DNA of 64,000 nt from a virus, in the IMG/VR virus record IMGVR_UViG_3300025886_000012; one strand, 5' to 3'. Each line of letters opens with the position of its first letter. Positions within the stretch are counted from its first letter, which is position 1. A program made the translations under genes and the position numbers. Positions 49,793 to 64,000 of this stretch are shown here, piece by piece. The notes under the pieces are model-generated. The model ran no database searches, was not told the origin of the DNA, and was given only the letters and a program-made list of their open reading frames with translations.

Positions 49793-51534
49793 GTTGGAAA
49801 AAACATTTTACACCAGTACCCGCAAGCAAGAATACAACAGGTAGTTATAGTCCTTTTAGCTTTAACAAAAGCAATGGCGGCGTAGGTCCAGCAGCGGCAA
49901 ATTACTCAAGTCATTTGCCTGATGTATACGTAGGATCACCAAACCGTATTGAAAGATATGGCCAGTATAATACTATGGATACTGATTCTGAAGTTAATGC
50001 TGCCCTTGATATTCTTGGAGAATTTTGTACACAACCAAACAAACAAAATGGTACACCGTTTAGTATTGTATTTCATCAAACTGCTACTAGCACTGAAGTA
50101 AATATTGTGTCACAATATTTAAAACAGTGGTGTAAGTTACAACAATTTGAAAAACGTATGTTCAAAATCATTAGAAATACGTTTAAATATGGCGATCAAT
50201 TTTTTATTAGAGATCCACAAACTTCAAAATGGTTTCATGTTGATCCTGCAAACCTAACCAAAGTTATTGTTAATGAAAGTGAAGGCAAGCGTCCAGAACA
50301 GTACATTATCAAAGATATTAATATATCATATGAAGCATTAAGTGCTACCAAAATCAATACAATTAACGACGGCGTTGGCGCTAACGGAGCCGGACAAAAT
50401 TATCAAACACTTGATCAAAAATACATGACCGGATCTCCAAATACTCCAAACAACAGCAACAGATATTCAACTGACTCAAATGAAATTGCAGTTGATGCTC
50501 AACACATTGTACACCTTTCGATGAACGAAGGATTAGATAATAACTATCCATTTGGTAATAGTTTACTTGAAACTATCTTTAAAGTATACAAGCAAAAAGA
50601 ATTACTTGAAGATGCAATTATTATCTATCGTGTGCAACGTGCGCCAGAGCGCAGAGTATTCTACGTTGATGTGGGCAACATGCCATCACACCTTGCTATG
50701 CAGTTTGTGGAGCGTGTAAAGACGGAAATTCATCAAAGACGAATCCCATCAAAGACCGGCGGAGGACAAACAGTCATAGACAGTAGCTACAACCCGTTGT
50801 CAATTAACGAAGACTACTTCTTTCCACAAACTGCTGAAGGTCGTGGATCAAAAGTTGAAACACTACCAGGCGGAACCAACCTTGGTGAAATTGACGATTT
50901 ACGCTATTTCACCAATAAACTAGTACGTGGATTGAGAATTCCAAGTTCTTACTTGCCAACTGGTGCAGACGATTCGGCTTCGCAATACAATGACGGTCGT
51001 GTTGGCACAGCCTATATCCAAGAATTAAGATTTAACAATTACTGCGAACGACTACAAAGTATGCTCACAGAAGTATTTAATAATGAGTTTAAACTTTACT
51101 TAGATCATAAAGGAATTAACATTGATATTTCAATGTTTGATTTAAAACTACAAACTCCACAAAACTTTGCAAGTTATAACCTAGCAGAGCTAGACAATAA
51201 TAGAATTTCTACATTTAGTCAAATGCAAGCTGTGCCATTTATTTCAAATCGCTTTGCTTTAAAAAGGTTCTTGGGTCTATCTGATGAAGAAATTCAACAA
51301 AATGAAGCACTATGGCGTGAAGAGAATGATGAATTCTTTACTGGCGAGCCACAAGACGCTGCTGCTAATATGAGAGACGCTGGTATAACTGGCGCAGGCA
51401 TATCAGACGATATGACAGCAACTGGCGAAGATGAGATACCTGAAGAACCAATGGACGATGCAAACAGCGCATTACCCACTGATGCAGCTGCCCCAGCAAC
51501 ATCACCGGCAGCAGAAACAGCAGTTGGAGCATAA
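49789..51534 (+). CDS. gp20: Portal vertex protein
   Basis: LLEDAIIIYRVQRAPERRVFYVDVGNMP, EDYFFP..GRGSKVETLPGG.NLGEIDDLRYF. Confidence 0.95.
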   Translation: MSWKKHFTPVPASKNTTGSYSPFSFNKSNGGVGPAAANYSSHLPDVYVGSPNRIERYGQYNTMDTDSEVNAALDILGEFCTQPNKQNGTPFSIVFHQTATSTEVNIVSQYLKQWCKLQQFEKRMFKIIRNTFKYGDQFFIRDPQTSKWFHVDPANLTKVIVNESEGKRPEQYIIKDINISYEALSATKINTINDGVGANGAGQNYQTLDQKYMTGSPNTPNNSNRYSTDSNEIAVDAQHIVHLSMNEGLDNNYPFGNSLLETIFKVYKQKELLEDAIIIYRVQRAPERRVFYVDVGNMPSHLAMQFVERVKTEIHQRRIPSKTGGGQTVIDSSYNPLSINEDYFFPQTAEGRGSKVETLPGGTNLGEIDDLRYFTNKLVRGLRIPSSYLPTGADDSASQYNDGRVGTAYIQELRFNNYCERLQSMLTEVFNNEFKLYLDHKGINIDISMFDLKLQTPQNFASYNLAELDNNRISTFSQMQAVPFISNRFALKRFLGLSDEEIQQNEALWREENDEFFTGEPQDAAANMRDAGITGAGISDDMTATGEDEIPEEPMDDANSALPTDAAAPATSPAAETAVGA

Positions 51535-51542
51535 ATAGTAAC

Positions 51543-51788
51543 ATGATACTTAGAGAACTATATTACTTTGATAAAAAAACAATGGAGCCTGAAGAGGACC
51601 ATCGTTATGAACCTGAAAGAGATAAGAAAACATATTCTTTTTCAGATACAAGACAGACTAGATTAACGTTAGGTGACATTAATAAAGCAAGAAAAGCTGA
51701 CGAAAAGCATAGCGAAGAAAAAATTAAAGACTTGTATCATGTAAGAGCAATGTATGGAATATCTGCACAAGCACCTGCTGAAATGTAA
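51543..51788 (+). CDS. Hypothetical protein (head module)
   Basis: 81-aa ORF; ATAAATA at 51531-51537 exactly 5 nt before ATG. Confidence 0.75.
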   Translation: MILRELYYFDKKTMEPEEDHRYEPERDKKTYSFSDTRQTRLTLGDINKARKADEKHSEEKIKDLYHVRAMYGISAQAPAEM

Positions 51789-51806
51789 TATTACAAGGAT
51801 CTTACA

Positions 51807-52556
51807 TTGAAAAAATATATTCCAGGTGAGTCAAAAGCTGAACGAAAACAAAGAAAAACTATTGACAAATTAAAAAAACTTCAATCAAAATCGTTAGATA
51901 AACAGACTGTAGAATCTACCAATATATCCAACAATAATAATTTAGATACTAATAAAAATCTTAATTCGCCGATTGCATTTGTTCTTGGCAACGGAATTAG
52001 CAGAAAAGATATAGATATTACACTATTACAAACCTATGGAAAAGTATATGCGTGTAATGCAATATATCGTACTTCGCAACCTGATTATTTAATTGCAGTT
52101 GATACTAAGATGATGAAAGAAATAATACAATCTGGATATCATCAAACTAATATAGTTTACACTAATCCAAATCGTTTCACTAGAGAATTTGATAATATAA
52201 ATTTGTTTACTCCAAATTTAGGCTGGAGTTCAGGTCCAAGTGCATTAAATTTAGCTAGTACACACGGATATTCAACAATATATATACTAGGTTTTGACTA
52301 TCAAGGAGTAGGTGAAAACAATGGTCTAGTTAATAATTTGTATAGTGGAACTGAAAATTACAAAGGCAGTAATGACAGAGCTACTTATTTTGGTAACTGG
52401 TCTAGACAAACTGGTATATGCATAAGAAAATATCCTGAAATAAAGTATATACGAGTAGTCGAAGATGAAAATAGCTTTGTTCCTGATAATATTACCAACA
52501 TGGAGAATTTAAAACATATTACCAAACAAAATTTTATAAATAACTTATCTAAATAA
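51807..52556 (+). CDS. DUF115/MptE/Maf-like Rossmann-fold (sialyltransferase-like) protein
   Basis: AFVLGNGIS, VYACNAIY, PDYLIAVD, GWSSG, IYILGFDY; TTG start. Confidence 0.55.
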   Translation: MKKYIPGESKAERKQRKTIDKLKKLQSKSLDKQTVESTNISNNNNLDTNKNLNSPIAFVLGNGISRKDIDITLLQTYGKVYACNAIYRTSQPDYLIAVDTKMMKEIIQSGYHQTNIVYTNPNRFTREFDNINLFTPNLGWSSGPSALNLASTHGYSTIYILGFDYQGVGENNGLVNNLYSGTENYKGSNDRATYFGNWSRQTGICIRKYPEIKYIRVVEDENSFVPDNITNMENLKHITKQNFINNLSK

Positions 52557-52613
52557 AAAAAATATAAAACTGTCGGTTTTGAACCTATTATAGTATAGTT
52601 TTTACTATAACGT

Positions 52614-52620
52614 GTAAATA
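52614..52620 (+). promoter_or_regulatory. Late promoter variant GTAAATA for head operon
   Basis: Preceded by hairpin TTATAGTA-N7-TACTATAA (52588-52610). Confidence 0.5.
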
Positions 52621-52658
52621 TAACTGACAGCCTTGAAGTACATTTAAAGGAGAAAAAC

Positions 52659-53627
52659 ATGACTGATCAAAATAAATTTGAAGAAATGCTAGAACGTCTA
52701 ATTAACGAAGACCGTTCAGGCGCAGAAGAACTATTTCACGAAATAGTTGTAGCAAAATCAAGAGAAATTTACCAAGACATTATTGAATCTGAAGAAGAAG
52801 TTGACGAAGATGAAGAAGTTGACGAATCATCCGAAGACGATTTAGACGAATCCGAAGACGATTTAGACGAATCAGAAGATGATTTAGACGAATCATCCGA
52901 AGACGATTTAGACGAATCATCCGAAGACGATTTAGACGAAATGTTTGGTCTTGACGAAGTAGACGATGACATGGGCGGCGATCCAACTGATGACATGATG
53001 TCAGACATTGAAGACGGCGACGACATGGATGACATGGGCGACGACATAGGCGACGATGAGGAAATAGAAGATCGTGTAGTTGACTTAGAAGACGCACTAG
53101 CTGAATTACAACAAGAATTTGAAGCTATGATGGGCGACGATGACGACATGGGCGATGACGACATGGATAGCGATGACGACATGGACGACATGGACGACAT
53201 GGGCGATGACGACATGGACGATGACGACATGGATGGTGATGACGAAACTGAAGAGTCGTATGCATTTGAAGAGTCTGACGAAGAAGTTGACGAATCAGAA
53301 GAAGAAGTTGACGAAGTTGCTAAATCAGCAACTGAGCAAATGCGTGAATATGTTGAAAAAATATCTGCACCATCTGGTGGCGATAACGGCGCAAATTCAA
53401 AAAGCATAGTAGCAAAGCCAAATAATATGGGCGGAACATCAGCAAATATTGCTAAAGGTGCAACCGAAGCAGGCGGTAAGGCTGCTGCCCCAAAAGTGGA
53501 TGACGCAGGCAATAGAAATAAGCCCGGCGGCATGAGTGCCAAAAAAGGCATGAAAAACGAACCTGGTCACGGCGCTGAGAAAAAGGGCAAGCCAGAGAAT
53601 GCTGCAGATAAAAAGTCATTGACTTGA
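52659..53627 (+). CDS. Highly acidic prohead core/scaffold-type protein
   Basis: D/E-rich; directly upstream of prohead protease, where T4 has gp67/gp68. Confidence 0.6.
   Translation: MTDQNKFEEMLERLINEDRSGAEELFHEIVVAKSREIYQDIIESEEEVDEDEEVDESSEDDLDESEDDLDESEDDLDESSEDDLDESSEDDLDEMFGLDEVDDDMGGDPTDDMMSDIEDGDDMDDMGDDIGDDEEIEDRVVDLEDALAELQQEFEAMMGDDDDMGDDDMDSDDDMDDMDDMGDDDMDDDDMDGDDETEESYAFEESDEEVDESEEEVDEVAKSATEQMREYVEKISAPSGGDNGANSKSIVAKPNNMGGTSANIAKGATEAGGKAAAPKVDDAGNRNKPGGMSAKKGMKNEPGHGAEKKGKPENAADKKSLT
52821..52940. repeat. Five tandem 21/24-bp units encoding DE(S)SEDDL
   Basis: GACGAATC(ATC)CGAAGACGATTTA-type units read directly. Confidence 0.9.
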
Positions 53628-53654
53628 AGCAGCAAATAAGTTAAGGAATTACGG

Positions 53655-54278
53655 ATGAGCTATTTACGTGAACATATGAGTTTCGACCAGGCTAAAATTG
53701 TTGTTGAGTCTGCTAACGAAGGCAAAGATCTTTATATGAAAGGCATTTGTATTCAAGGCGGAGTACGCAACGCAAATCAGCGTGTATATCCCGTAAATGA
53801 AATTAGTAGGGCTGTCACCACACTCAATGAACAAATTGCTGGTGGTTATTCAGTTCTTGGTGAAGTAGATCATCCTGAAGGACTTAACATTAACATTGAC
53901 CGTGTATGCCATATGGTTACAGAAATGTGGATGGACGGTGCAAATGGTTACGGTAAATTAAAAATATTACCTACTCCGATGGGACAACTAGTTAAAACAA
54001 TGCTTGAAGCACAAGTTAAACTAGGTGTCTCATCAAGAGGCTCCGGCAACGTTAGCGAAAGCGGCAATGGCGAAGTAAGCGAATTTGAGATAATCACCGT
54101 GGATGTTGTAGCTCAACCTAGCGCACCAGGTGCTTATCCAACACCAATATATGAACACCTAATGAATGAAAAAGGTGGATATAAGGCATTTATTACAAGT
54201 AAAGAAGTAACAGGCGACAAAAAGGCACAGAAATATATTGCAGAGAGCTTATTAAATATAATAAGCAGGCTCCAATAA
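53655..54278 (+). CDS. gp21: Prohead protease
   Basis: NANQRVYP, LGEVDHP, LGVSSRGSG, DVVAQPSAPGAY. Confidence 0.95.
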   Translation: MSYLREHMSFDQAKIVVESANEGKDLYMKGICIQGGVRNANQRVYPVNEISRAVTTLNEQIAGGYSVLGEVDHPEGLNINIDRVCHMVTEMWMDGANGYGKLKILPTPMGQLVKTMLEAQVKLGVSSRGSGNVSESGNGEVSEFEIITVDVVAQPSAPGAYPTPIYEHLMNEKGGYKAFITSKEVTGDKKAQKYIAESLLNIISRLQ

Positions 54279-54289
54279 AGGAGAATAAT

Positions 54290-55375
54290 ATGGACCCAAT
54301 AAAATCCCTTTTAGAGAGTGAAGCAATTACAGAGCAAATGAAATCTGAAATACAAGAAGCATGGGATACTAAGATAAAAGAAAATCGTCTTAGTGTTGCA
54401 TCAGAACTAAGAGAAGAATTTGCTTCAAAGTACGAACACGATAAAGGTGTTATGGTTGAAGCAATTGATTCAATGATACGCGAAAAGCTATCAGAAGAAA
54501 TGACAGAATTCCACGAAGATAGATTACAACTTTCGGAAGCTAAAACAAAATATGTTAAAGCTATGAGAGAAAATTCTAATCTTTTAAAGACATTTGTTAG
54601 CAATACTCTTGTTAAAGAAATTTCAGACCTACATGAAGATCAAAAAGAAATGGCAAATAAATTTACCATTTTAGAAGAATTTATTGTAGATCAACTTGCA
54701 AACGAAATTGCAGAATTCCAAGAAGATAAGAAAGACTTAGCTGAAACAAAAGTACGTTTAGTACGTGAAGCTAAAGTTCACTTCAACAAAATTAAGAAAA
54801 CTTTTGTTGAAAGAAGTGCAAAAGCAGTTGAGAGAACAGTTAACAACGGATTAACATCTGAAATTAGCCAACTCAAAGAAGATATTGAAGTAGCACGTAA
54901 AAATGATTTCGGTCGTAAAATATTTGAAGCATTTTCTTCAGAATATTTAAATTCACATCTTAGTGAATCGTCTGAAACCAAAAAATTGTTAAAAGTTCTT
55001 GAAGCTAAAGATAAACAACTTGCTGATGCAAAAACACTTGCAGTAAAAGCTAAAACTATAGCAGAATCAAAAGACGCTGAAGTAAAGCGTTTGCTTGAAT
55101 CCAAAGAACGTATAGCTATTATGAACGAGTTGACTACGCCATTAAGCAGAGATCAACGAGGAATCATGAATGACTTACTGGAGTCGGTACAAACTAGTAG
55201 ACTACGTCGACAATTTGACAAATACCTACCGTCAGTAATTGATGGTCATAGTCCAGCAAAGCAGAAGGCACAGATAACCGAGGCAAAAGAAATAACAGGC
55301 AATAGAAATAATAGTTCAATCAAACCAGTATCAGACCATAATGTCGTTGACATTAAACGTCTAGCTGGATTATAA
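54290..55375 (+). CDS. gp22: Prohead core scaffold protein
   Basis: Coiled-coil protein between protease and capsid; FGRKIFEAF. Confidence 0.8.
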   Translation: MDPIKSLLESEAITEQMKSEIQEAWDTKIKENRLSVASELREEFASKYEHDKGVMVEAIDSMIREKLSEEMTEFHEDRLQLSEAKTKYVKAMRENSNLLKTFVSNTLVKEISDLHEDQKEMANKFTILEEFIVDQLANEIAEFQEDKKDLAETKVRLVREAKVHFNKIKKTFVERSAKAVERTVNNGLTSEISQLKEDIEVARKNDFGRKIFEAFSSEYLNSHLSESSETKKLLKVLEAKDKQLADAKTLAVKAKTIAESKDAEVKRLLESKERIAIMNELTTPLSRDQRGIMNDLLESVQTSRLRRQFDKYLPSVIDGHSPAKQKAQITEAKEITGNRNNSSIKPVSDHNVVDIKRLAGL

Positions 55376-55388
55376 TAAGGAGATAATT

Positions 55389-56564
55389 ATGTCAGAACTA
55401 CTAGAAAGTCGCTGGACAGAGACTAAAGGTGCTCTGCTCGAGGGCCTCGGAGGCAACAAAAAGGCAGTAATGGACACTACTCTTGAAAATACACGCAAGT
55501 ATTTGTCAGAGAGTGCAACTGCTGGTGCTACTTCTGCGGGTAACGTCGCGACACTTAACCGTGTGATCCTACCAGTGATCAGACGTGTAATGCCAACTGT
55601 CATTGCAAATGAACTAGTTGGTGTACAACCAATGACCGGCCCAGTCGGTCAAATCCACACATTGAGAGTGCGTTATGCAGATACGTTTGATTCAACTAGT
55701 GGAACAGATGTAACTGCAGGCGAAGAAGCATTAAGCCCATTCAAAATTGCCGAAGGTTACTCAGGTGCTGCTGCAACTGATAAAGCAGCTTCAACAGGAT
55801 CCATGGAAGGTACAGCTGGTAACAGACTAAGCATCCAGATCTTGAAGCAAACTGTAGAAGCAAAATCACGCAAGCTATCCGCTCGCTGGACTTTTGAATC
55901 TGCACAAGATGCTCAATCACAGCATGGCATTGATGTAGAAGCAGAAATTATGGCTGCTCTTGCTCAAGAAATTACTTCTGAAATTGATCAAGAGGTAATT
56001 AGTAGCTTAACCACACTAGCTGGTTCTGCTGTACAAACATACGACCAAACATCTGTGTCTGGTACTGCTACTTTTGTTGGTGACGAACATGCTGCACTAG
56101 CTGTTACTATCAACAGAGTATCAAACCTAATTGCACAGCGTACACGTAGAGGCGCAGGTAACTGGGCAGTTGTTTCACCAACTGTACTAACTATCCTACA
56201 AAGTGCAACTACTTCAGCGTTTGCACGTACAACAGAAGGTACATTCGAAGCACCAACTAACACAAAACTAGTTGGTACATTGAACAATGCAATGAAAGTA
56301 TATGTTAACACATATGCTTCTAGCGATAATGTTCTAGTTGGCTATAAAGGTTCAACTGAATCTGATGCCGCAGCATTTTATTGCCCATACATTCCGCTAA
56401 TGAGCTCCGGTGTTGTGCTAGATCCAGCAACATTTGAGCCAGTTGTTAGCTTCATGACTCGTTATGGTTATGTAGAACTAACTAACGCAGCTAGCTCTCT
56501 TGGTAATGCTGCTGACTACTTAGGTCTAGTCGGAGTTACTTCAAATAGCTTAACTTTTAGCTAA
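55389..56564 (+). CDS. gp23: Major capsid protein
   Basis: VGVQPMTGPVGQIHTLRVRY, VEAKSRKLSARWT, YCPYIPL, MTRYG. Confidence 0.95.
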   Translation: MSELLESRWTETKGALLEGLGGNKKAVMDTTLENTRKYLSESATAGATSAGNVATLNRVILPVIRRVMPTVIANELVGVQPMTGPVGQIHTLRVRYADTFDSTSGTDVTAGEEALSPFKIAEGYSGAAATDKAASTGSMEGTAGNRLSIQILKQTVEAKSRKLSARWTFESAQDAQSQHGIDVEAEIMAALAQEITSEIDQEVISSLTTLAGSAVQTYDQTSVSGTATFVGDEHAALAVTINRVSNLIAQRTRRGAGNWAVVSPTVLTILQSATTSAFARTTEGTFEAPTNTKLVGTLNNAMKVYVNTYASSDNVLVGYKGSTESDAAAFYCPYIPLMSSGVVLDPATFEPVVSFMTRYGYVELTNAASSLGNAADYLGLVGVTSNSLTFS

Positions 56565-56581
56565 GTTATACTTTATATTAC

Positions 56582-56607
56582 AAAATAGGCGCTGCGGCGC
56601 CTATTTT
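56582..56607 (+). terminator. Intrinsic terminator after capsid gene (possibly bidirectional)
   Basis: AAAATAGGCGC-TGCG-GCGCCTATTTT. Confidence 0.85.
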
Positions 56608-56630
56608 CTTGACTTTTTTAAAAAAACCGG

Positions 56631-56659
56631 TTGACAACACCATATAAGTTTGCTATATT
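56631..56659 (+). promoter_or_regulatory. sigma70 promoter
   Basis: TTGACA, 17 bp, TG-C-TATATT (extended -10). Confidence 0.75.
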
Positions 56660-56665
56660 AAGTAC

Positions 56666-56884
56666 ATAAGTTAGGCGACGGTTTAACTTAGATGGTGACT
56701 GAAGCGATGTCGGTAGACGGCATCAAGGTAATGTAGAAGAATCTTAGCGGATTGGTTTAGCGACTGCATACATGTTCTGGGTTAATTGCACGAGTCTACT
56801 TGTGCCCGGTTGAAGGTAATAAGTAATTCCTTCCTATCAATATTAATTAAGGAAGGTTCTGCTACAGTGGCAGGACCTTTTTTT
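56666..56884 (+). ncRNA. Candidate ~220-nt small RNA
   Basis: Bounded by sigma70 promoter and terminator; only 13-14-codon ORFs without SD; several hairpins; about 43% GC by hand count. Confidence 0.55.
56853..56884 (+). terminator. Intrinsic terminator
   Basis: AAGGTTCTGC-TACAGTG-GCAGGACCTT followed by T run. Confidence 0.85.
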
Positions 56885-56891
56885 GTATTTG

Positions 56892-56898
56892 ATAAATA
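56892..56898 (+). promoter_or_regulatory. Late promoter ATAAATA
   Basis: Upstream of structured leader and 56994 gene. Confidence 0.55.
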
Positions 56899-56993
56899 TA
56901 TACGTCAGATAGTGTGTTATTAAGCACACTTATGCTGTCCCAACAGCGTACCGGATAGAACCCGGATAGGACTACTTTTATAGGAGAAAAAAA

Positions 56994-57455
56994 ATGGGAA
57001 GACCACTTAATAAAAGATTGTTTGGAGTAGCAGGCACAGGACCTACAGCTTCGGGAACAGAAATCAAAGTAAATTTTCATAACGGAACAGCAGTTAAAGA
57101 GGGCTATATTGTAAAACAAAAAGGTTCTAAGAAATTTGTTTGTGAAGAAATTGGAACAGCAGGCTTATTTACTTGCACACTAAAAACTGGTGTACTACCA
57201 GCGGCATTATCAGCAGGCGAAATGTCAATTTCAGTACAAGGCGCTGATTCAGAAACATACGGTGTTGCAAAAATTACAGGCAGAAAAGTTACTGTTGCTT
57301 CACCAAGTGCAACTGGTTCAAATGCATTAGCAGGAACATCGATAAAATATGCACTTACAGGATCAGCAGCAGCTGGCATTGTACGTATGGAAGAAGCTGG
57401 CGATGACAACACATTATCTGATACAGATGATGATGATTTCACTGAAGACGCATAA
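56994..57455 (+). CDS. Late protein, possible capsid decoration protein
   Basis: G/A/T-rich 153 aa, strong SD AGGAG, follows capsid gene. Confidence 0.5.
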   Translation: MGRPLNKRLFGVAGTGPTASGTEIKVNFHNGTAVKEGYIVKQKGSKKFVCEEIGTAGLFTCTLKTGVLPAALSAGEMSISVQGADSETYGVAKITGRKVTVASPSATGSNALAGTSIKYALTGSAAAGIVRMEEAGDDNTLSDTDDDDFTEDA

Positions 57456-57520
57456 TAATTAATTTTAGTATTAGTTAGGACAGTTTTAAGGATTGTCCTA
57501 ACACAACTATTGGAGGAACT

Positions 57521-57781
57521 ATGGCAGTATCTAAAGTACAACACTACGATGTAGATTTATACAAAATAAAAGTGAAAAGTAACGGATTGATTGATATTGA
57601 TGCTGGCACTATTGAACTTGGCGGCTATGTAAAAATAACAGGTCAAAATACTTTTACATTATCAAATTGTACAACCACACAACGTGACGCACTTACTCCG
57701 GCAAATGGTAGTACTATATACAATACCACTACAAATAAATTCCAGGGCTATGCAAACGGCGCATGGGTAGATTTGCATTAA
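57521..57781 (+). CDS. Hypothetical virion-type protein
   Basis: SD GGAGG; C-terminal GSTIYNTTTNKFQGYANGAW motif common in fibre-like proteins. Confidence 0.6.
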   Translation: MAVSKVQHYDVDLYKIKVKSNGLIDIDAGTIELGGYVKITGQNTFTLSNCTTTQRDALTPANGSTIYNTTTNKFQGYANGAWVDLH

Positions 57782-58212
57782 ACAACTAACTCAATTAGTT
57801 TAAACACAGTTTCTAATTTTTTTTGATTTATTTTAGATCTTAATGTATTTGATAATCCTTGATGCAACGGCTTTGGCCAATTTCCAAAACTTACCCATGC
57901 ATATCCGTTGTGTTCTTTATTTAAATATGGAATAAATTCTTTGTCTATTACACACAAATAAGTATGAAATTTAAAATTTTCATCATTGCTGATAAAAGTT
58001 TCTAGTGGAATAGTTTTTTTAATATCTGGAAGATTACCTAATTCTTCCTGAATTTCTCGTTGTAAACCTTCCCATGCTGTTTCGTTATCTTCGTTTCTTC
58101 CGCCAGGTAATCCCCACACATTTTTTTGTCGTGATTGCGCTCGATGTAAAAATAAAAATCTATTAGTTGATAGTGTGTAAATTAATGACCCGGAACAAAT
58201 TATACTAGACAT
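57778..58212 (-). CDS. NUDIX hydrolase
   Basis: Nudix box GGRNEDNETAWEGLQREIQEELG. Confidence 0.85.
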   Translation of the reverse strand: MSSIICSGSLIYTLSTNRFLFLHRAQSRQKNVWGLPGGRNEDNETAWEGLQREIQEELGNLPDIKKTIPLETFISNDENFKFHTYLCVIDKEFIPYLNKEHNGYAWVSFGNWPKPLHQGLSNTLRSKINQKKLETVFKLIELVV

Positions 58213-58220
58213 ACATTAAT

Positions 58221-59708
58221 TTAGCCATCCAAGTATGCCATCCAGTTTCCTCCTGAATAGAATCCTTCCCAACTTTTAGTCCAAATTTTTCCATTCCATT
58301 TATATTGAATATTAGTATTTAAATTCTTTATATAAGTTATATTTGAAGTACTCGATGCATTAAATATAATATCCCAACTGGTTCCATTCCATTCAATAAT
58401 ATCATTCTCGCCGGCAATTACATCAGTACCGTTATTATTTTTCCATGCATCAGGGCCGTCATATGCTGCATCATTAGCATTTGTACTATTATTAATAGCA
58501 GATAATATAAGCACACGTAATCCTGATACTTTATATGTTGAGGGATTCCATCTTTCGGGTTCAATAATATAATCAATACTGGTTAAACTATTTGAATCAC
58601 GATATGAACTATTAATAATAGTATTTGCTGGCAGTGTATCGCTATCCCATACTATTGAAACTTCTCTATCATTTAATGGATTTAAAGTAAATGTTCCAAT
58701 AAGATAGTTAGTAGTATCTAGTTGTCTTACACGAATTTGACTAACTCCGGCTTTGTATTGACCTGGATAACTTTGAAGTATCATTTCCCAACTTTCGTTA
58801 CCAACTATATCGTTAACAACTAATTCACCTTTAGTACCAGTTACATACAATCCATAATTTTGATATGTAGTTGATATTGTTGAACGATCAACATCTGACA
58901 AATCAATATTAAGTTCAGATTCAATATTAACTTCGCCAGTTGATGATTCAATCTTAGTTGTAACTTGCTCTACTGGATGTTTAACGTCTTGATAAGATTG
59001 TAATATTGGAGTACTAATTCCAAGTTCAATCTCTCCTGAATCTTCGTTGTATATACTAGCAATAACTTTTGTAATTACTCCAAGACGTTTTACTTTTGCA
59101 GGAGGAGACAAATAGATAGGAGTTGTTAATGTTAGTGTAGCTATATCAATTTCGGTATCTATACCAACAGGAACATTTCTGCTGCTGAAAACAATTGTTT
59201 CTAGATTTACACTAGTTAAACTAGTCCAATCAATATAATTATCAGTTGATTGTATTTCTAAAGAAGGATTAAACAAAGTTAAAATTTGTTCTAAAATTTG
59301 TAATTTTTGATCAGTACTTGTTGACCATATATCAACATTTAACCCAAGTATATACGGAGTTGGCATTAATCTTTCAACTGTATAATTTTTACCTTGTTCA
59401 TTTAGATATTCAGTACCATCAGCATTTAATGCTCTTTCTCGTACATGAACTTTACTTACATATGTTGAATCAGATGTTTTAGATCTATCTTGTTGTAAAT
59501 TAGTAATATGTATAGCAATTCTTGGAGCACTTGGAATTTTGTTTTCTGAATTATCTTTTATAATATTTGCTACTTGGCGTGATAAATCACCATAAGTAAC
59601 TGGTACTTCACGTAAATCTCCGTCGCCATCTTGATAGCTAAAATTACTCATTAACCGAATAGACTGTGTTAAATATCTTCTTATTTGACCATCATAAAAA
59701 TGTAACAT
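58221..59708 (-). CDS. gp15: Tail sheath stabiliser / terminator, gp15-like, with C-terminal extension
   Basis: HFYDGQIRRY, VPVTYG, MPTPYIL..NVDIW, KLQILEQILTLFNP. Confidence 0.75.
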   Translation of the reverse strand: MLHFYDGQIRRYLTQSIRLMSNFSYQDGDGDLREVPVTYGDLSRQVANIIKDNSENKIPSAPRIAIHITNLQQDRSKTSDSTYVSKVHVRERALNADGTEYLNEQGKNYTVERLMPTPYILGLNVDIWSTSTDQKLQILEQILTLFNPSLEIQSTDNYIDWTSLTSVNLETIVFSSRNVPVGIDTEIDIATLTLTTPIYLSPPAKVKRLGVITKVIASIYNEDSGEIELGISTPILQSYQDVKHPVEQVTTKIESSTGEVNIESELNIDLSDVDRSTISTTYQNYGLYVTGTKGELVVNDIVGNESWEMILQSYPGQYKAGVSQIRVRQLDTTNYLIGTFTLNPLNDREVSIVWDSDTLPANTIINSSYRDSNSLTSIDYIIEPERWNPSTYKVSGLRVLILSAINNSTNANDAAYDGPDAWKNNNGTDVIAGENDIIEWNGTSWDIIFNASSTSNITYIKNLNTNIQYKWNGKIWTKSWEGFYSGGNWMAYLDG

Positions 59709-60841
59709 TAGTTATCTGCCCTTGGTGATAGTGCTTTCGACAAGCTCTGACGTTCTGTTACAGTAGTACCGCCTATTGTTGAAGTTTTAGTATTATTAAT
59801 AAACGATGTACGTTGTGTATCTCTAGAATTAGTATTAGTTAGAGTTTGTCTTACGTTGTCTTCCATTTTAATCCATCTTGTTCCGTTAAATCTAAATAGT
59901 CTATTAGGAAAGAAATCAGTTCTTAAAAAATAGTCTCCATTCTGACTGCTTACAGGAAATCCTATTCCGCTACCAAATACTTCTCCATTTGGTGGCAATC
60001 CGTCTCCAACTAGATAGCCCGAATACCCTGATCTTTCAGGAGGTGCATTTGCTCTATCAATTGCTGAATCGGCACCAGTTGAAACTAATTCGGGTTTACC
60101 ATCATTATCTACTTGGAGTGTATAAAAATAACTAGTATCATATCCGCTTTTTGGAGCATCAACTTCGGCTTGAGCAACAACAGCATCATTGATTGCTTTT
60201 TCTTGATTATAAGTACTTAGAACATCTCTTAGGGTATTTCCTTCATCATCTTCTGCAGATTTGTCAAGTATATCTTTATACTGTTGACTATCAATAATCT
60301 GTGTTAATTTTAATCTATATAAATGAGGGAACCATGTTTGTGAAAATCCTTCTGACGACCTTGATACTTCTTCAATTACATAAAATCTTTTCAGTGAAAC
60401 ACTAAAATCATTTAGTGCATGTTCATCAACAAGATGCGGCAGTTCAATTACATCGCCACTGATCAATTTACGCCCAATTGTTTTTACACTACTATTAATG
60501 TGTACAGTTAGATATAAAGTATCACTACTTAAAAACAATCCAAACTGACTTAAATTAAAGTCATTATCTTGAATATTATATATTCCACGGATTTCATATA
60601 TATCAGGATCGTATTTTCGATCTCTGTTTTCAAGAAACAACATATCTTGAATATTTGTTTCAGCAACTTCATTATATCTTGGCTTATCTGCTGTTGACTC
60701 GACAACTGATGGATTGTCAGGACCTAAAAACTTATGGACAAATACATCAGTGCCACCAATTGAAAATTGTTCATAGATAACTTTATCTAAGAATTCATAA
60801 TCGGCAGTTTTATTTGGTCGGTATAAACTTAATCTTGGCAT
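59708..60841 (-). CDS. gp14: Neck protein, gp14-like
   Basis: ATG 60841 (MPRLSLYRPNK); IGGTDVFVH, LSQFGLF, GDVIELPHL, YRLK. Track start at 60886 overlaps the divergent gene. Confidence 0.7.
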   Translation of the reverse strand: MPRLSLYRPNKTADYEFLDKVIYEQFSIGGTDVFVHKFLGPDNPSVVESTADKPRYNEVAETNIQDMLFLENRDRKYDPDIYEIRGIYNIQDNDFNLSQFGLFLSSDTLYLTVHINSSVKTIGRKLISGDVIELPHLVDEHALNDFSVSLKRFYVIEEVSRSSEGFSQTWFPHLYRLKLTQIIDSQQYKDILDKSAEDDEGNTLRDVLSTYNQEKAINDAVVAQAEVDAPKSGYDTSYFYTLQVDNDGKPELVSTGADSAIDRANAPPERSGYSGYLVGDGLPPNGEVFGSGIGFPVSSQNGDYFLRTDFFPNRLFRFNGTRWIKMEDNVRQTLTNTNSRDTQRTSFINNTKTSTIGGTTVTERQSLSKALSPRADN

Positions 60842-60846
60842 ACTTA

Positions 60847-60867
60847 TATTTATCGTTACGCTAAATA
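60847..60867. promoter_or_regulatory. Back-to-back late promoters
   Basis: ATAAATA (-, 60847-60853) and CTAAATA (+, 60861-60867). Confidence 0.6.
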
Positions 60868-60884
60868 CTAGCGGAGACTTAAAC

Positions 60885-61643
60885 ATGGCAGACTTACAAA
60901 CTGAAAAACAAGAAGTTTTTGATTATATTCATGCATTCCTTGGCGGAGGTATGATCGATGTAGAACTTGATCCTATACATTATGAAACTGCATTATCAAA
61001 AGCTTTATCAAAATTTAGACAAAAATCTGAAAATTCAGTTGAAGAGAGTTATATTACTCTTGATTTAGTTAAAGATCAAAATCATTATACTTTGCCCACT
61101 GAAGTAATTGAAGTTAGACAAATTTACAGACGCAGTGTTGGTAGTCGAAGCGGTGGCGGCGATGGCGGAACATTATATGATCCATTTAATTTAGCATATA
61201 CTAATACATATTTACTATCAGGATCTGGTATGGGAGGATTAGCAACTTACGAATTGTATTCTCAGCACCAAGAACTTGTAGCTAGAATGTTTGGTGCATT
61301 TATTGAGTTTACTTGGAATAGTGCAACAAAAAAATTAACAGTTTTGCAACGTCCAGGATCAGAAGAATCGGTATTGTTATTTTGTTATAATTATAGACCT
61401 GATACGCAAATACTAGCTGATTATCTAGCAAAGCAATGGATTAAAGATTATACACTCGCAGCTTGTAAATATATGCTAGGCGAAGCACGAGAAAAATTTT
61501 CCACCATTGCAGGTCCACAAGGCGGAACTGCACTTAATGGTGCTAGTTTAAAGGCAGAAGCCCAGCAAGAAATGGAAAAACTTGAAATTGAAGTTTCAAC
61601 TGCTGTAGCAGGCGGAACTGGATATTCCTTCCTAATTGGCTGA
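60885..61643 (+). CDS. gp13: Neck protein, gp13-like
   Basis: LGGGMIDVELD, WIKDYTLA..KYMLGEAREKF, GPQGG..LNG..LKAEA. Confidence 0.8.
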   Translation: MADLQTEKQEVFDYIHAFLGGGMIDVELDPIHYETALSKALSKFRQKSENSVEESYITLDLVKDQNHYTLPTEVIEVRQIYRRSVGSRSGGGDGGTLYDPFNLAYTNTYLLSGSGMGGLATYELYSQHQELVARMFGAFIEFTWNSATKKLTVLQRPGSEESVLLFCYNYRPDTQILADYLAKQWIKDYTLAACKYMLGEAREKFSTIAGPQGGTALNGASLKAEAQQEMEKLEIEVSTAVAGGTGYSFLIG

Positions 61644-61691
61644 ATTAACTATGTAGTTAACGGTAAAATCCGGTAGTTTTTAGCATGTATG

Positions 61692-61698
61692 CTAAATA
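61692..61698 (+). promoter_or_regulatory. Late promoter variant CTAAATA for sheath operon
   Basis: Overlaps right arm of inverted repeat TTTAGCAT-GT-ATGCTAAA (61679-61696). Confidence 0.5.
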
Positions 61699-61738
61699 CT
61701 ATTAACAAAATATTACCATCAGACAAGGGGAACTAAAA

Positions 61739-64000
61739 ATGGCATTAACATCACCAGGTGTATCAGTATCAGTAAGCGACGAGAGTTTTTATACTCCAGC
61801 TGAACCTGGTACTACACCACTTATATTTGTAGCTACAAAAGAAAATAAACAAAATCCTGGAGCAACAGGTACAGCTTTAGGAACATTAGCTTCCAATGCA
61901 GGAAAGCCTTATTTAATCAGCTCACAAAGAGAGCTGTCTGAAACATTTGGCGACCCTTTATTTTATAAAGATGCTAGTAACAATATGTTACATGGTAGCG
62001 AACAAAACGAATACGGATTACAAGCTGCATATTCATTTTTAGGTGTAGCTAATAGAGCATTTGTAGTTCGTGCAAATCTTGATTTAGCTGATATTAGCGC
62101 AAGTGCAACTGCAACTGCTGGGAAAGCAGCTAATGCATCATATTGGTTTGATACAGATGATACAAAATTTGGTATATTTGAATGGAACGGTGCATCCGGG
62201 ACAGTAACCGGCGGTCAAAGTTTTACAAATAAAGTTCCAACTGTTATTACTGACACTACTAAAGTAGTTGATTATGCAGGTGCTGATTATACACCAAAAG
62301 GTAGTGTAGGCGCAATTGGCGACTATGCTGTAGTTGCAGTTACTAATATTAACAGAATGTGGTATAAAAATTCTGTTGGAGCATGGGTTGAAATTGGAAG
62401 TTCTGCATGGAAAGCTAGTCATCCAATGGTAACAGGTACTGTATCTACACCAACTATTGTTGCTGGGCAAACATTATCTTTTAATATTAGTCTTGTTGAT
62501 AGTGGCGGAACACAAATAAGCCAAGTTACTTCGGGTACTACACTAACTAGTATTGTAGGTGATATTAATGGTAATAGTACACTACAAACTGCAGGTATTA
62601 CTGCTAAAGCAATAAGTAATCGCCTAGCAATTTATTACAATGGATCAACTGCACAAGGCGGAGTAGCAGTTGATAGAGTAGAAATATACGGAGATGTTGC
62701 ACTTACTACAGCATTAGGAATAACTCAAGGTGATTATTATTCTCCAGAATTAAATATTGCACCTCATACTAATGTTCCTGAATTTAAAGCAATTAATCCA
62801 AATCCAAGACCAACTGGTAGTATATGGATTAAAACTACTAATCCAAATAAAGGCGCAAACTGGTCAGTAAAACAATATAATTCAACTAGTGATGTGTGGA
62901 CTACAATTGATGCACCAATATATAATACTAATTATGCAGCAATTTATTCTCTTGATAGTACAGGTGGCGGCGCAAATATTTCTGAAGGCGCATTATATAT
63001 TCAAAATAATCTTACAGAAATAGCAGAAAAACTAGCTACATTTAAAGTATATAGAAAAAATAATTCAGGTGCAACTACAATAACAAGTGGCAAAGTTTTA
63101 GCTAGCACATATTCAGCAGGTACTTATTCATTCACAGTTTCAGAATCAAAAACTGGTATAGCTACTATGAGTACACCAGTAACTGTTTCATTTACAGCAA
63201 CCGGTGCAACATCTGATGCTGAACTAATTGCAAATGCAATTAACTCAGCAGGATTTACTAATATTACTGCTACGATCGATTCTGTAAATAGAATTACTGT
63301 TTCACATGCATTAGGCGGCGACATTAGATTTGTTGATACAGCAGGTGCTTTAGCATCTTTGTTTACAATATATGATTCAACTAATGCAAGTTCAACTACT
63401 AACTTTTATTTTGTTCCTGGAACAAACACATCTACATCGCCAAAACAGTTTATGGCAAGCTCGTGGAAAGTGTTAACATATACAGCCAAAGCAACTGAGC
63501 CAACTACTATCCCAGCAACTGGTACACTTTGGTATAGCTCAATTGTTGACGAAGTAGATCTATTAATACATAACGGAACTACTTGGGTCGGATTGCATAA
63601 TTTTGATCCATTAGGAGGAAGTGCAACTGGCGCTAGTAGTGTACTTGACCCAGCTGGTCCAATAGTGTCAGCGTCACAGCCAACTACACAATCAGATAAG
63701 TCGGCATTAGTTGAAGGCGATATATGGATTAGCACAGCTGATCTTGAAAATTATCCAACTATGTATCGTTGGAATGCATCATCAGCAAAGTGGGCCATTC
63801 TAGATAAAACTGATCAAACTACAGAAAATGGTATATTATTTGATGATGTACGTTATAATACCTCAGGAGCAAATAGTGCTACAGCAGGGACAATAGTTGA
63901 CTTATTAACTAGCAACTATTTAGATCCTGATTCCCCAGATCCAGCACTATATCCAAAAGGTATGATACTATGGAATACACGCAGAAGTGGGTTTAATGTA
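61739..64000 (+). CDS. gp18: Tail sheath protein, 3' end outside window
   Basis: Not in track. ATG 61739, SD AAGGGG; MALTSPGVSVSVSDES, SQRELSETFGDP, NEYGLQAAYSFLG..AFVVRA. Confidence 0.85.
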   Translation, partial: MALTSPGVSVSVSDESFYTPAEPGTTPLIFVATKENKQNPGATGTALGTLASNAGKPYLISSQRELSETFGDPLFYKDASNNMLHGSEQNEYGLQAAYSFLGVANRAFVVRANLDLADISASATATAGKAANASYWFDTDDTKFGIFEWNGASGTVTGGQSFTNKVPTVITDTTKVVDYAGADYTPKGSVGAIGDYAVVAVTNINRMWYKNSVGAWVEIGSSAWKASHPMVTGTVSTPTIVAGQTLSFNISLVDSGGTQISQVTSGTTLTSIVGDINGNSTLQTAGITAKAISNRLAIYYNGSTAQGGVAVDRVEIYGDVALTTALGITQGDYYSPELNIAPHTNVPEFKAINPNPRPTGSIWIKTTNPNKGANWSVKQYNSTSDVWTTIDAPIYNTNYAAIYSLDSTGGGANISEGALYIQNNLTEIAEKLATFKVYRKNNSGATTITSGKVLASTYSAGTYSFTVSESKTGIATMSTPVTVSFTATGATSDAELIANAINSAGFTNITATIDSVNRITVSHALGGDIRFVDTAGALASLFTIYDSTNASSTTNFYFVPGTNTSTSPKQFMASSWKVLTYTAKATEPTTIPATGTLWYSSIVDEVDLLIHNGTTWVGLHNFDPLGGSATGASSVLDPAGPIVSASQPTTQSDKSALVEGDIWISTADLENYPTMYRWNASSAKWAILDKTDQTTENGILFDDVRYNTSGANSATAGTIVDLLTSNYLDPDSPDPALYPKGMILWNTRRSGFNV

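Follow-up and report, generated by a model that had tools for sequence, protein, structure and literature searches.

Genomic setting and transcription unit

The window, that is, the whole 64-kb stretch of viral DNA analyzed, derives from an uncultured marine giant phage. The best RNA runs containing the region are marine or estuarine, and BLAST of the window copy and of two related copies (L377, L228) against 50,697 cultured phage records returned nothing meaningful and no cultured carrier. No tRNA or tmRNA genes were found in the 64-kb window. A non-coding RNA gene lies between the gene for the major capsid protein and the next post-capsid gene, in the following arrangement:

55389-56564 (+), gene for a gp23-like major capsid protein of 391 aa, the upstream neighbor (PHROG 138, major head protein, E 1.8e-102)
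56582-56607 (+), intrinsic terminator of the capsid operon; relatives have an equivalent hairpin whether or not they carry the RNA
56631-56659 (+), sigma70-type promoter, TTGACA-17-TATATT, with an extended -10 TG at 56651-52 and a predicted +1 near 56665
56665-56840 (+), compact manA-family RNA of the twin-UUAGCG subtype, about 175 nt, assigned from Rfam RF01745, an alignment, covariation and a 176-nt RNA contig
56849-56884 (+), intrinsic terminator of the RNA gene (-19.0 kcal/mol), the sequence of which varies between clades
56891-56898 (+), GATAAATA, T4-like late promoter box of the downstream gene; relatives lacking the cassette have the same box in front of the same gene family
56913-56996 (+), freshwater-2 RNA motif (RF02980), 5' leader of the downstream gene (74.3 bits, cut-off 49.9)
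56994-57455 (+), post-capsid gene of 153 aa, MGRP family, with no PHROG match

The capsid protein is 67-71% identical to the capsid proteins of Vibrio phage 2.275.O, Sinorhizobium phage Phosso, PA5oct and GAP32. Weak transcript evidence comes from capsid RNA contigs of two studies, which end at 56503 and 56534. A perfect TTGACA-18-TATAAT was observed at 55347-55376, immediately before the capsid gene and overlapping the gp22-like gene at its end; capsid genes are usually expressed late. Within the freshwater-2 leader (56913-56996), the first hairpin is entirely different in the window (TTATTA loop region) and in L202 and L210 (GCAA loop), the remainder being identical. No paper on freshwater-2 was found in the literature search.

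The promoter of the RNA gene consists of TTGACA (56631-36), a spacer of 17 nt and TATATT (56654-59). With its extended -10 element it scores 11/12 and ranks second among the promoter-like sites in 50000-64000, and it is one of two extended -10 sites of this grade in the whole 64 kb. Promoter-like sites in the AT-rich region are by themselves not above chance (56 found, 55.5 expected). A promoter and a terminator are paired at the same spacing in relatives. The sigma70-type promoter, taken alone, suggests early expression.

A preliminary description of this DNA had proposed a self-contained non-coding RNA gene of about 220 nt. The promoter, the terminators and the three hairpins it listed (56667-90, 56706-24, 56788-805) were all recovered, as were GAAGG (56812-16), CCTTCC (56829-34) and GGAAGG (56851-56). 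The gene was upheld as self-contained and non-coding, with a promoter of host type and a terminator of its own; its size was not upheld, since the conserved fold covers about 175 nt (56665-56840), not 220. The three hairpins are real, but the list missed the two UUAGCG hairpins, the closing stem and a loop-loop pairing. That the gene holds no credible ORF agrees with our analysis: the sole plus-strand ORF of at least 20 aa starting inside it is a 45-aa TTG frame that crosses the terminator, and the shorter ORFs in the RNA region are without conservation across the subfamily.

In a marine metatranscriptome (X19), a contig of 176 nt lies wholly on 56665-56840 with one difference and with the flanks uncovered, and its ends agree with the predicted start and with the end of the fold. 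The RNA was covered in one of four RNA runs, in which contigs cannot show absence. A discrete transcript of about 176 nt is weakly shown by this one low-depth contig, which is strandless and for which DNA carry-over is possible.

Secondary structure and covariation

Scanning viral and metagenome contigs with sequence patterns yielded 83 matches, the window among them and some redundant between collections; the alignment used here (A1) holds 34 distinct full-length sequences of one subtype. The folding z-score of the window copy is -3.94, with 0/200 shuffles as stable (terminator included). Across A1, 96.4% of cells in the structure are paired, compensatory changes occur at 35/49 pairs, and the covariation score reaches 0.59, while controls with slid partners do not exceed 0.11. 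The P1, P2, P3, P4, P8 and P9 helices of manA all have covariation support in A1:

56667-56690 (+), hairpin P1, with a GACG loop at 56677-80 that is GACG in 34/34 members of the subtype, on a covarying stem
56691-56838 (+), closing stem P2, 56691-95 with 56834-38, with compensatory changes at four of five pairs and a pair probability of about 0.92
56706-56724 (+), hairpin P3, with the loop GGUAGAC (56712-18), which pairs with L8
56732-56772 (+), P4 (56732-35 with 56769-72), bearing two hairpins with UUAGCG loops (56740-53 and 56754-65) on covarying stems
56776-56811 (+), P8 domain, with the apical loop GUCUACU (56794-800), the partner of L3, supported by covariation
56812-56833 (+), hairpin P9, GAAGG (56812-16) with CCUUC (56829-33), supported by covariation; its 3' side is the strand earlier noted as a switch

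A near-invariant GUGACUGAA segment (56695-703) comes after the 5' strand of P2. In the full transcript the pairing probability of P9 is 0.96-0.98, and two of its inner pairs change compensatorily, in 20/34 and 10/34 sequences.

The L3 and L8 loops are complementary over 6-7 covarying base pairs in the window, and 5-7 complementary bases are kept in 34/34 members through differing sequences. Over 12 distinct combinations the L3-L8 score is 5.54, compared with 3.48+/-0.34 for permuted pairings (0/5000); because the A1 sequences are related, such shuffle counts are not to be taken as probabilities. The helix is 90.5% paired, with compensatory changes at 5/7 pairs. A weak signal was found for L8-L9 complementarity (3.75 vs 3.38+/-0.14, 38/5000); in the window, the 5-bp option (56821-25 with 56797-801) shares bases with the L3 site, and L359 does not preserve it. 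The L3-L9 control gave no complementarity signal. By our reading, L3-L8 is the "pseudoknot?" of the original manA description. Judged from its sequence, it also corresponds to I2, the L3-L8' interface in the Photobacterium manA assemblies; it could be an intramolecular pseudoknot instead of an intermolecular contact.

The first of the twin loops is UUAGCG in 33/34 members and the second in 30/34, the other four having UUAGCA. In the compact subtype a three-way junction takes the place of the P4-P5-P6-P7 four-way junction found in most of the family, and the window RNA lacks the manA four-way junction with complementary L5 and L7. As the four-way junction is not universal in manA (it is absent in 6FAB), the three-way junction is taken as a marker of a variant. 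Both loops being UUAGCG, the L5-L7' contact has no plain counterpart here. No UUAGCG was found in the text or construct table of the supplement to the manA preprint (bioRxiv 10.64898/2026.07.01.735769), and a literature search for UUAGCG as a loop term found no paper. The hairpins were also considered as anticodon mimics; this idea was dropped, since an anticodon loop has 7 nt and these hairpins have loops of 6 nt, on stems that covary. In one manA of the long subtype (L071:5082-5296), the middle hairpin carries UUAGCG in the position of the GNRA-like loop of its relatives, a hint that this sequence may be an interchangeable contact module.

Assignment to the manA family

The manA motif has been described as a riboswitch candidate (Weinberg et al., 2010; PMC2864571), and it is still treated as cis-regulatory in the literature searched. 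Positions 1-192 of Rfam RF01745, the full model, match 56669-56843 with 44.4 bits (E 2.5e-10), so the window copy does not reach the gathering cut-off of 55.2 bits. The cut-off was passed by five of the 13 subtype loci tested (L377, L195, L366, L441 and L463; 57.9-65.2 bits), and a model built from the compact-subtype alignment alone recovers manA of the classic cyanophage type with 37-56 bits. From these two results we conclude that the element is a divergent, compact, remodeled manA rather than a new RNA family; the novelty implied by the preliminary description gave way to this Rfam assignment. The core blocks of manA are all present and in order, namely the GACG loop, GUGACUGAA, AAGGURAU and the GG..UAA..CC of P9.

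At the curated Rfam threshold, freshwater-2 (56913-96) was the only hit. Weak Rfam hits to STnc40, STnc130 and the L20 leader match terminators only and were rejected. A kinship with CRISPR repeats or toxin-antitoxin RNAs, which had been put forward for comparison, found no Rfam match even at E <=10, and the same was true of tRNA and tmRNA. In a narrow pattern scan of GTDB genomes, two matches were obtained, both apparently chance occurrences in coding-type sequence, and no cellular copy was detected.

The classic manA of T4-like cyanophages shares with the window RNA P1 with its GACG loop, GUGACUGAA, P3, AAGGURAU, P4, P8, P9 and the closing P2 in the same order, as well as L3-L8 complementarity, a host-type promoter directly upstream and, often, adjoining tRNAs. 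It is, however, longer (190-215 nt, compared with about 175 nt for the window RNA, which scores below the cut-off), and it has P5 (GUGGUG), P6 and P7 (YUACCA) where the window RNA has its three-way junction and two UUAGCG hairpins. Unlike classic manA, the window RNA has its own terminator and, being closed by it, is not a 5' UTR. The window capsid resembles those of PA5oct/GAP32-type jumbo phages, not those of cyanophages. A longer manA subtype within the same phage family (the GAUAGUGCAAGG type, 200-217 nt) occupies the same post-capsid slot with the same type of promoter and a terminator, but has a different body and a four-way junction.

Structures of manA assemblies have been obtained by cryo-EM, according to the preprint, for A0F1 (a 60-mer), 67AA, pho_A28C, pho34_A767 and 6FAB, and the RNA-only cages were formed in vitro at about 3 mg/mL (bioRxiv 10.64898/2026.07.01.735769). 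That source gives L1-L1' as an intermolecular contact in the solved cages (its Fig. S17) and L5-L7' (I1) as common to the four solved variants with a four-way junction (bioRxiv 10.64898/2026.07.01.735769). The loops of I2 (L3-L8), which the Photobacterium variants also have, are kept in the window RNA, as is the GACG loop of L1. In place of the complementary L5/L7 pair (I1) the window RNA has two identical loops, and no GNRA-capped P6 is present. The compact RNA is best filed as a manA variant: it has the core blocks, the helices and the L3-L8 pairing, but not the cut-off score, the four-way junction or a position in a 5' UTR.

Genomic distribution of the cassette

The locus was compared with 80 capsid relatives, 56 of which have at least 600 nt downstream. 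A manA-type RNA of the longer subtype lies behind the capsid gene in 21/80 relative loci. Among the tabulated related cassettes, a sigma70 promoter is present in 18/19 and a terminator in 18/19, and a tRNA follows one. Two loci (L069 and L031) share the promoter and the start of the first hairpin with the window, but continue into a different, longer manA body; a conserved 5' hairpin with a variable body, as suggested in the preliminary description, is thus seen in carriers of the longer subtype. Empty sites occur for both types of downstream gene (L017, L032, L033, L046, L047, L050, L052, L076; and L060). No manA was found elsewhere in the larger relative contigs, which are 17-53% complete (32-53% for a set of four). 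Comparison of these loci shows the element as an accessory, exchangeable cassette of predicted promoter, RNA and terminator between the capsid terminator and the next late promoter.

Of 34 compact members, eight are post-capsid, 16 adjoin tRNAs, one lies by a permuted tmRNA of the alphaproteobacterial type and nine are in other contexts. In six, a tRNA is immediately 3' of the RNA; with a tRNA as their direct neighbor, these copies cannot serve as leaders of protein genes, and tRNA processing may free them. An ORF begins 19-41 nt downstream in six members (L251, L263, L362, L455, L471, L480), so that a cis role may exist elsewhere. The 5' UTR location expected from the cis-regulatory annotation of manA was not found in the window, where the terminator of the RNA gene, the late box and the freshwater-2 leader intervene before the downstream gene.

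The slot behind the capsid terminator (56565-56912 in the window; L001-L080) was also observed to be a hot spot of accessory genes, with many different small ORFs and riboswitches; a tRNA also occurs there (L051), and the manA subtypes number at least three. Glutamine riboswitch aptamers scoring above the cut-off (43-58 bits) were detected at L022:4235-4282, L055:4236-4282 and L028:2734-2783; they lie directly after the capsid terminator, with a small ORF downstream and, in two of the three (L028 and L055), the manA cassette as well. A second conserved non-coding element is found right 3' of manA in two phage groups (L359:3383-3480 (+), L241:4875-4965 (+), L288, L319, L333, L430, L435). It has a long stem around ATGCAC...GTGCAT, a possible TCC/GGA pseudoknot and no meaningful Rfam match. 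In phage tRNA clusters beside the subtype, ARAGORN called tRNAs with A34 anticodons, tRNA-Ser ACT (L228, L251, L476) and tRNA-Gly ACC (L331, L438), which are either real or miscalls; A34 anticodons are rare in bacteria. Permuted tmRNA of the alphaproteobacterial type was found on three contigs bearing the subtype (L288:1974-2377, L344:2722-3144, L366:2433-2706), a hint that the hosts of those phages are alphaproteobacterial. The tmRNA match in L366 abuts or overlaps the 3' end of manA.

Possible functions

We consider it probable that the element is both a compact manA and a trans-acting structural RNA. It would be made by the host sigma70 polymerase from early infection, fold via its invariant core and oligomerize by kissing loops L3-L8' and, probably, GACG L1-L1', a scheme modeled on the in vitro behavior of the solved manA RNAs. 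It would act in trans as a structure, with no pairing to mRNA and no control of its neighbors. The function we favor, with rather less than even confidence, is that of a multivalent decoy or scaffold whose UUAGCG loops bind a putative conserved host RNA-binding factor, perhaps a defense or translation-control protein, and so aid takeover. It is favored because invariant bases lie both in the core and in the two identical loops on display, because the gene is accessory, and because the RNA travels with tRNA and tmRNA genes in the manner of GOLLD and ROOL. Those RNAs are likewise phage-borne, near tRNA islands and RNA-only kissing-loop oligomers (bioRxiv 10.1101/2024.12.08.627333), and by analogy they may be regarded as precedents; the likeness is in working only, as they are unrelated in sequence and fold, measure 600-800+ nt and have no Rfam match in the window. 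In a bolder version, which we think unlikely, the compact subtype would form an RNA-only oligomer of new geometry in infected cells, an RNA-only counter-defense device swapped as a cassette between lineages. Its UUAGCG loops would then kiss homotypically, with G-A pairs on either side of two G-C pairs, or would be displayed many-fold and trap a host defense or translation factor.

The other explanations differ in what the structure or the transcript would be for. A reading as a trans-acting orphan aptamer or ribozyme, whose pocket would consist of the invariant GUGACUGAA and AAGGUAAU segments, would account for core nucleotides that are invariant across differing phage lineages, for the complex fold and for the original riboswitch-candidate status (PMC2864571). 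It is nevertheless improbable, slightly more so than a new geometry: the tRNA-flanked copies have no expression platform, and the preprint places the conserved non-Watson-Crick modules M1 and M2 in the intramolecular fold and, in its available part, reports neither ligand nor catalysis (bioRxiv 10.64898/2026.07.01.735769). Of the small-RNA roles first suggested, a protein decoy is still a possible one, as in the reading favored above, whereas regulation of host mRNAs by base pairing has become very unlikely; the early-type promoter, the terminator and a size typical of sRNAs would suit it, but the loops either covary mutually (L3-L8) or are short constrained hexaloops, a long exposed seed is absent, and the same fold occurs in different phage groups. 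T4-type packaging motors work without RNA. This counts against a role in virion assembly like that of the phi29 pRNA pentamer, in which a kissing-loop ring would aid the packaging motor or the head. The gene does lie directly behind the capsid gene, and solved manA RNAs form kissing-loop pentamers (bioRxiv 10.64898/2026.07.01.735769), but the site is empty in many close relatives, the same subtype sits in tRNA clusters elsewhere, and the promoter is sigma70, not late; we regard such a role as highly improbable. The chance that the transcript is an mRNA for a small peptide is practically negligible. A 14-codon frame from 56692 is present in the post-capsid clades; it starts inside stem P2 without a ribosome-binding site and is absent from the other 26 members, and variation tracks base pairs, not codons.

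The preliminary description had further proposed a switch, in which CCUUCC gives up its partners in P9/P2 for the base of the terminator, so that early transcription enters the downstream gene. The alternative helix exists (7 bp, 56829-35 with 56850-56, -11.2 kcal/mol) and dominates the equilibrium folds of transcripts ending at 56856-56874, tertiary contacts not being counted; manA is, moreover, listed as cis-regulatory in Rfam and was a riboswitch candidate in Weinberg et al. (2010; PMC2864571). From 56878 on, however, the terminator displaces the helix, the probability of which falls to 0.02 and then to 0, and forcing it costs 7.8 kcal/mol. It is limited to the clade of the window, values in the 22 other cassettes being 0 to -6.3 kcal/mol; clade B, with a near-identical RNA, has no such helix and differs in terminator and downstream gene. 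The CCUUCC strand belongs to the core and covaries with its P9 partner. Neither the fold calculations nor the 22 other cassettes revealed a conserved, mutually exclusive terminator and anti-terminator. By sequence only, no dependence of the downstream gene on the upstream promoter is apparent: it has its own late box (56891-98) and leader, in the same layout in empty-site relatives. An attenuator is very unlikely on these grounds, only marginally less so than host-mRNA pairing, and this part of the preliminary description found no support.

Implications for manA RNAs

Covariation of the L3-L8 pairing points to natural selection on a contact known from the 2026 cage structures. Lacking the usual L5-L7 pair, the subtype of 175 nt offers a small, easily made test case, which could be used to determine which contacts set the geometry of the cages and whether assembly is the function. 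The promoter and terminator, the empty sites, the tRNA-flanked copies and the swaps between subtypes argue that, in these phages at least, manA exists as a free RNA gene, in contrast to its catalogue entry as a cis-regulatory riboswitch candidate.
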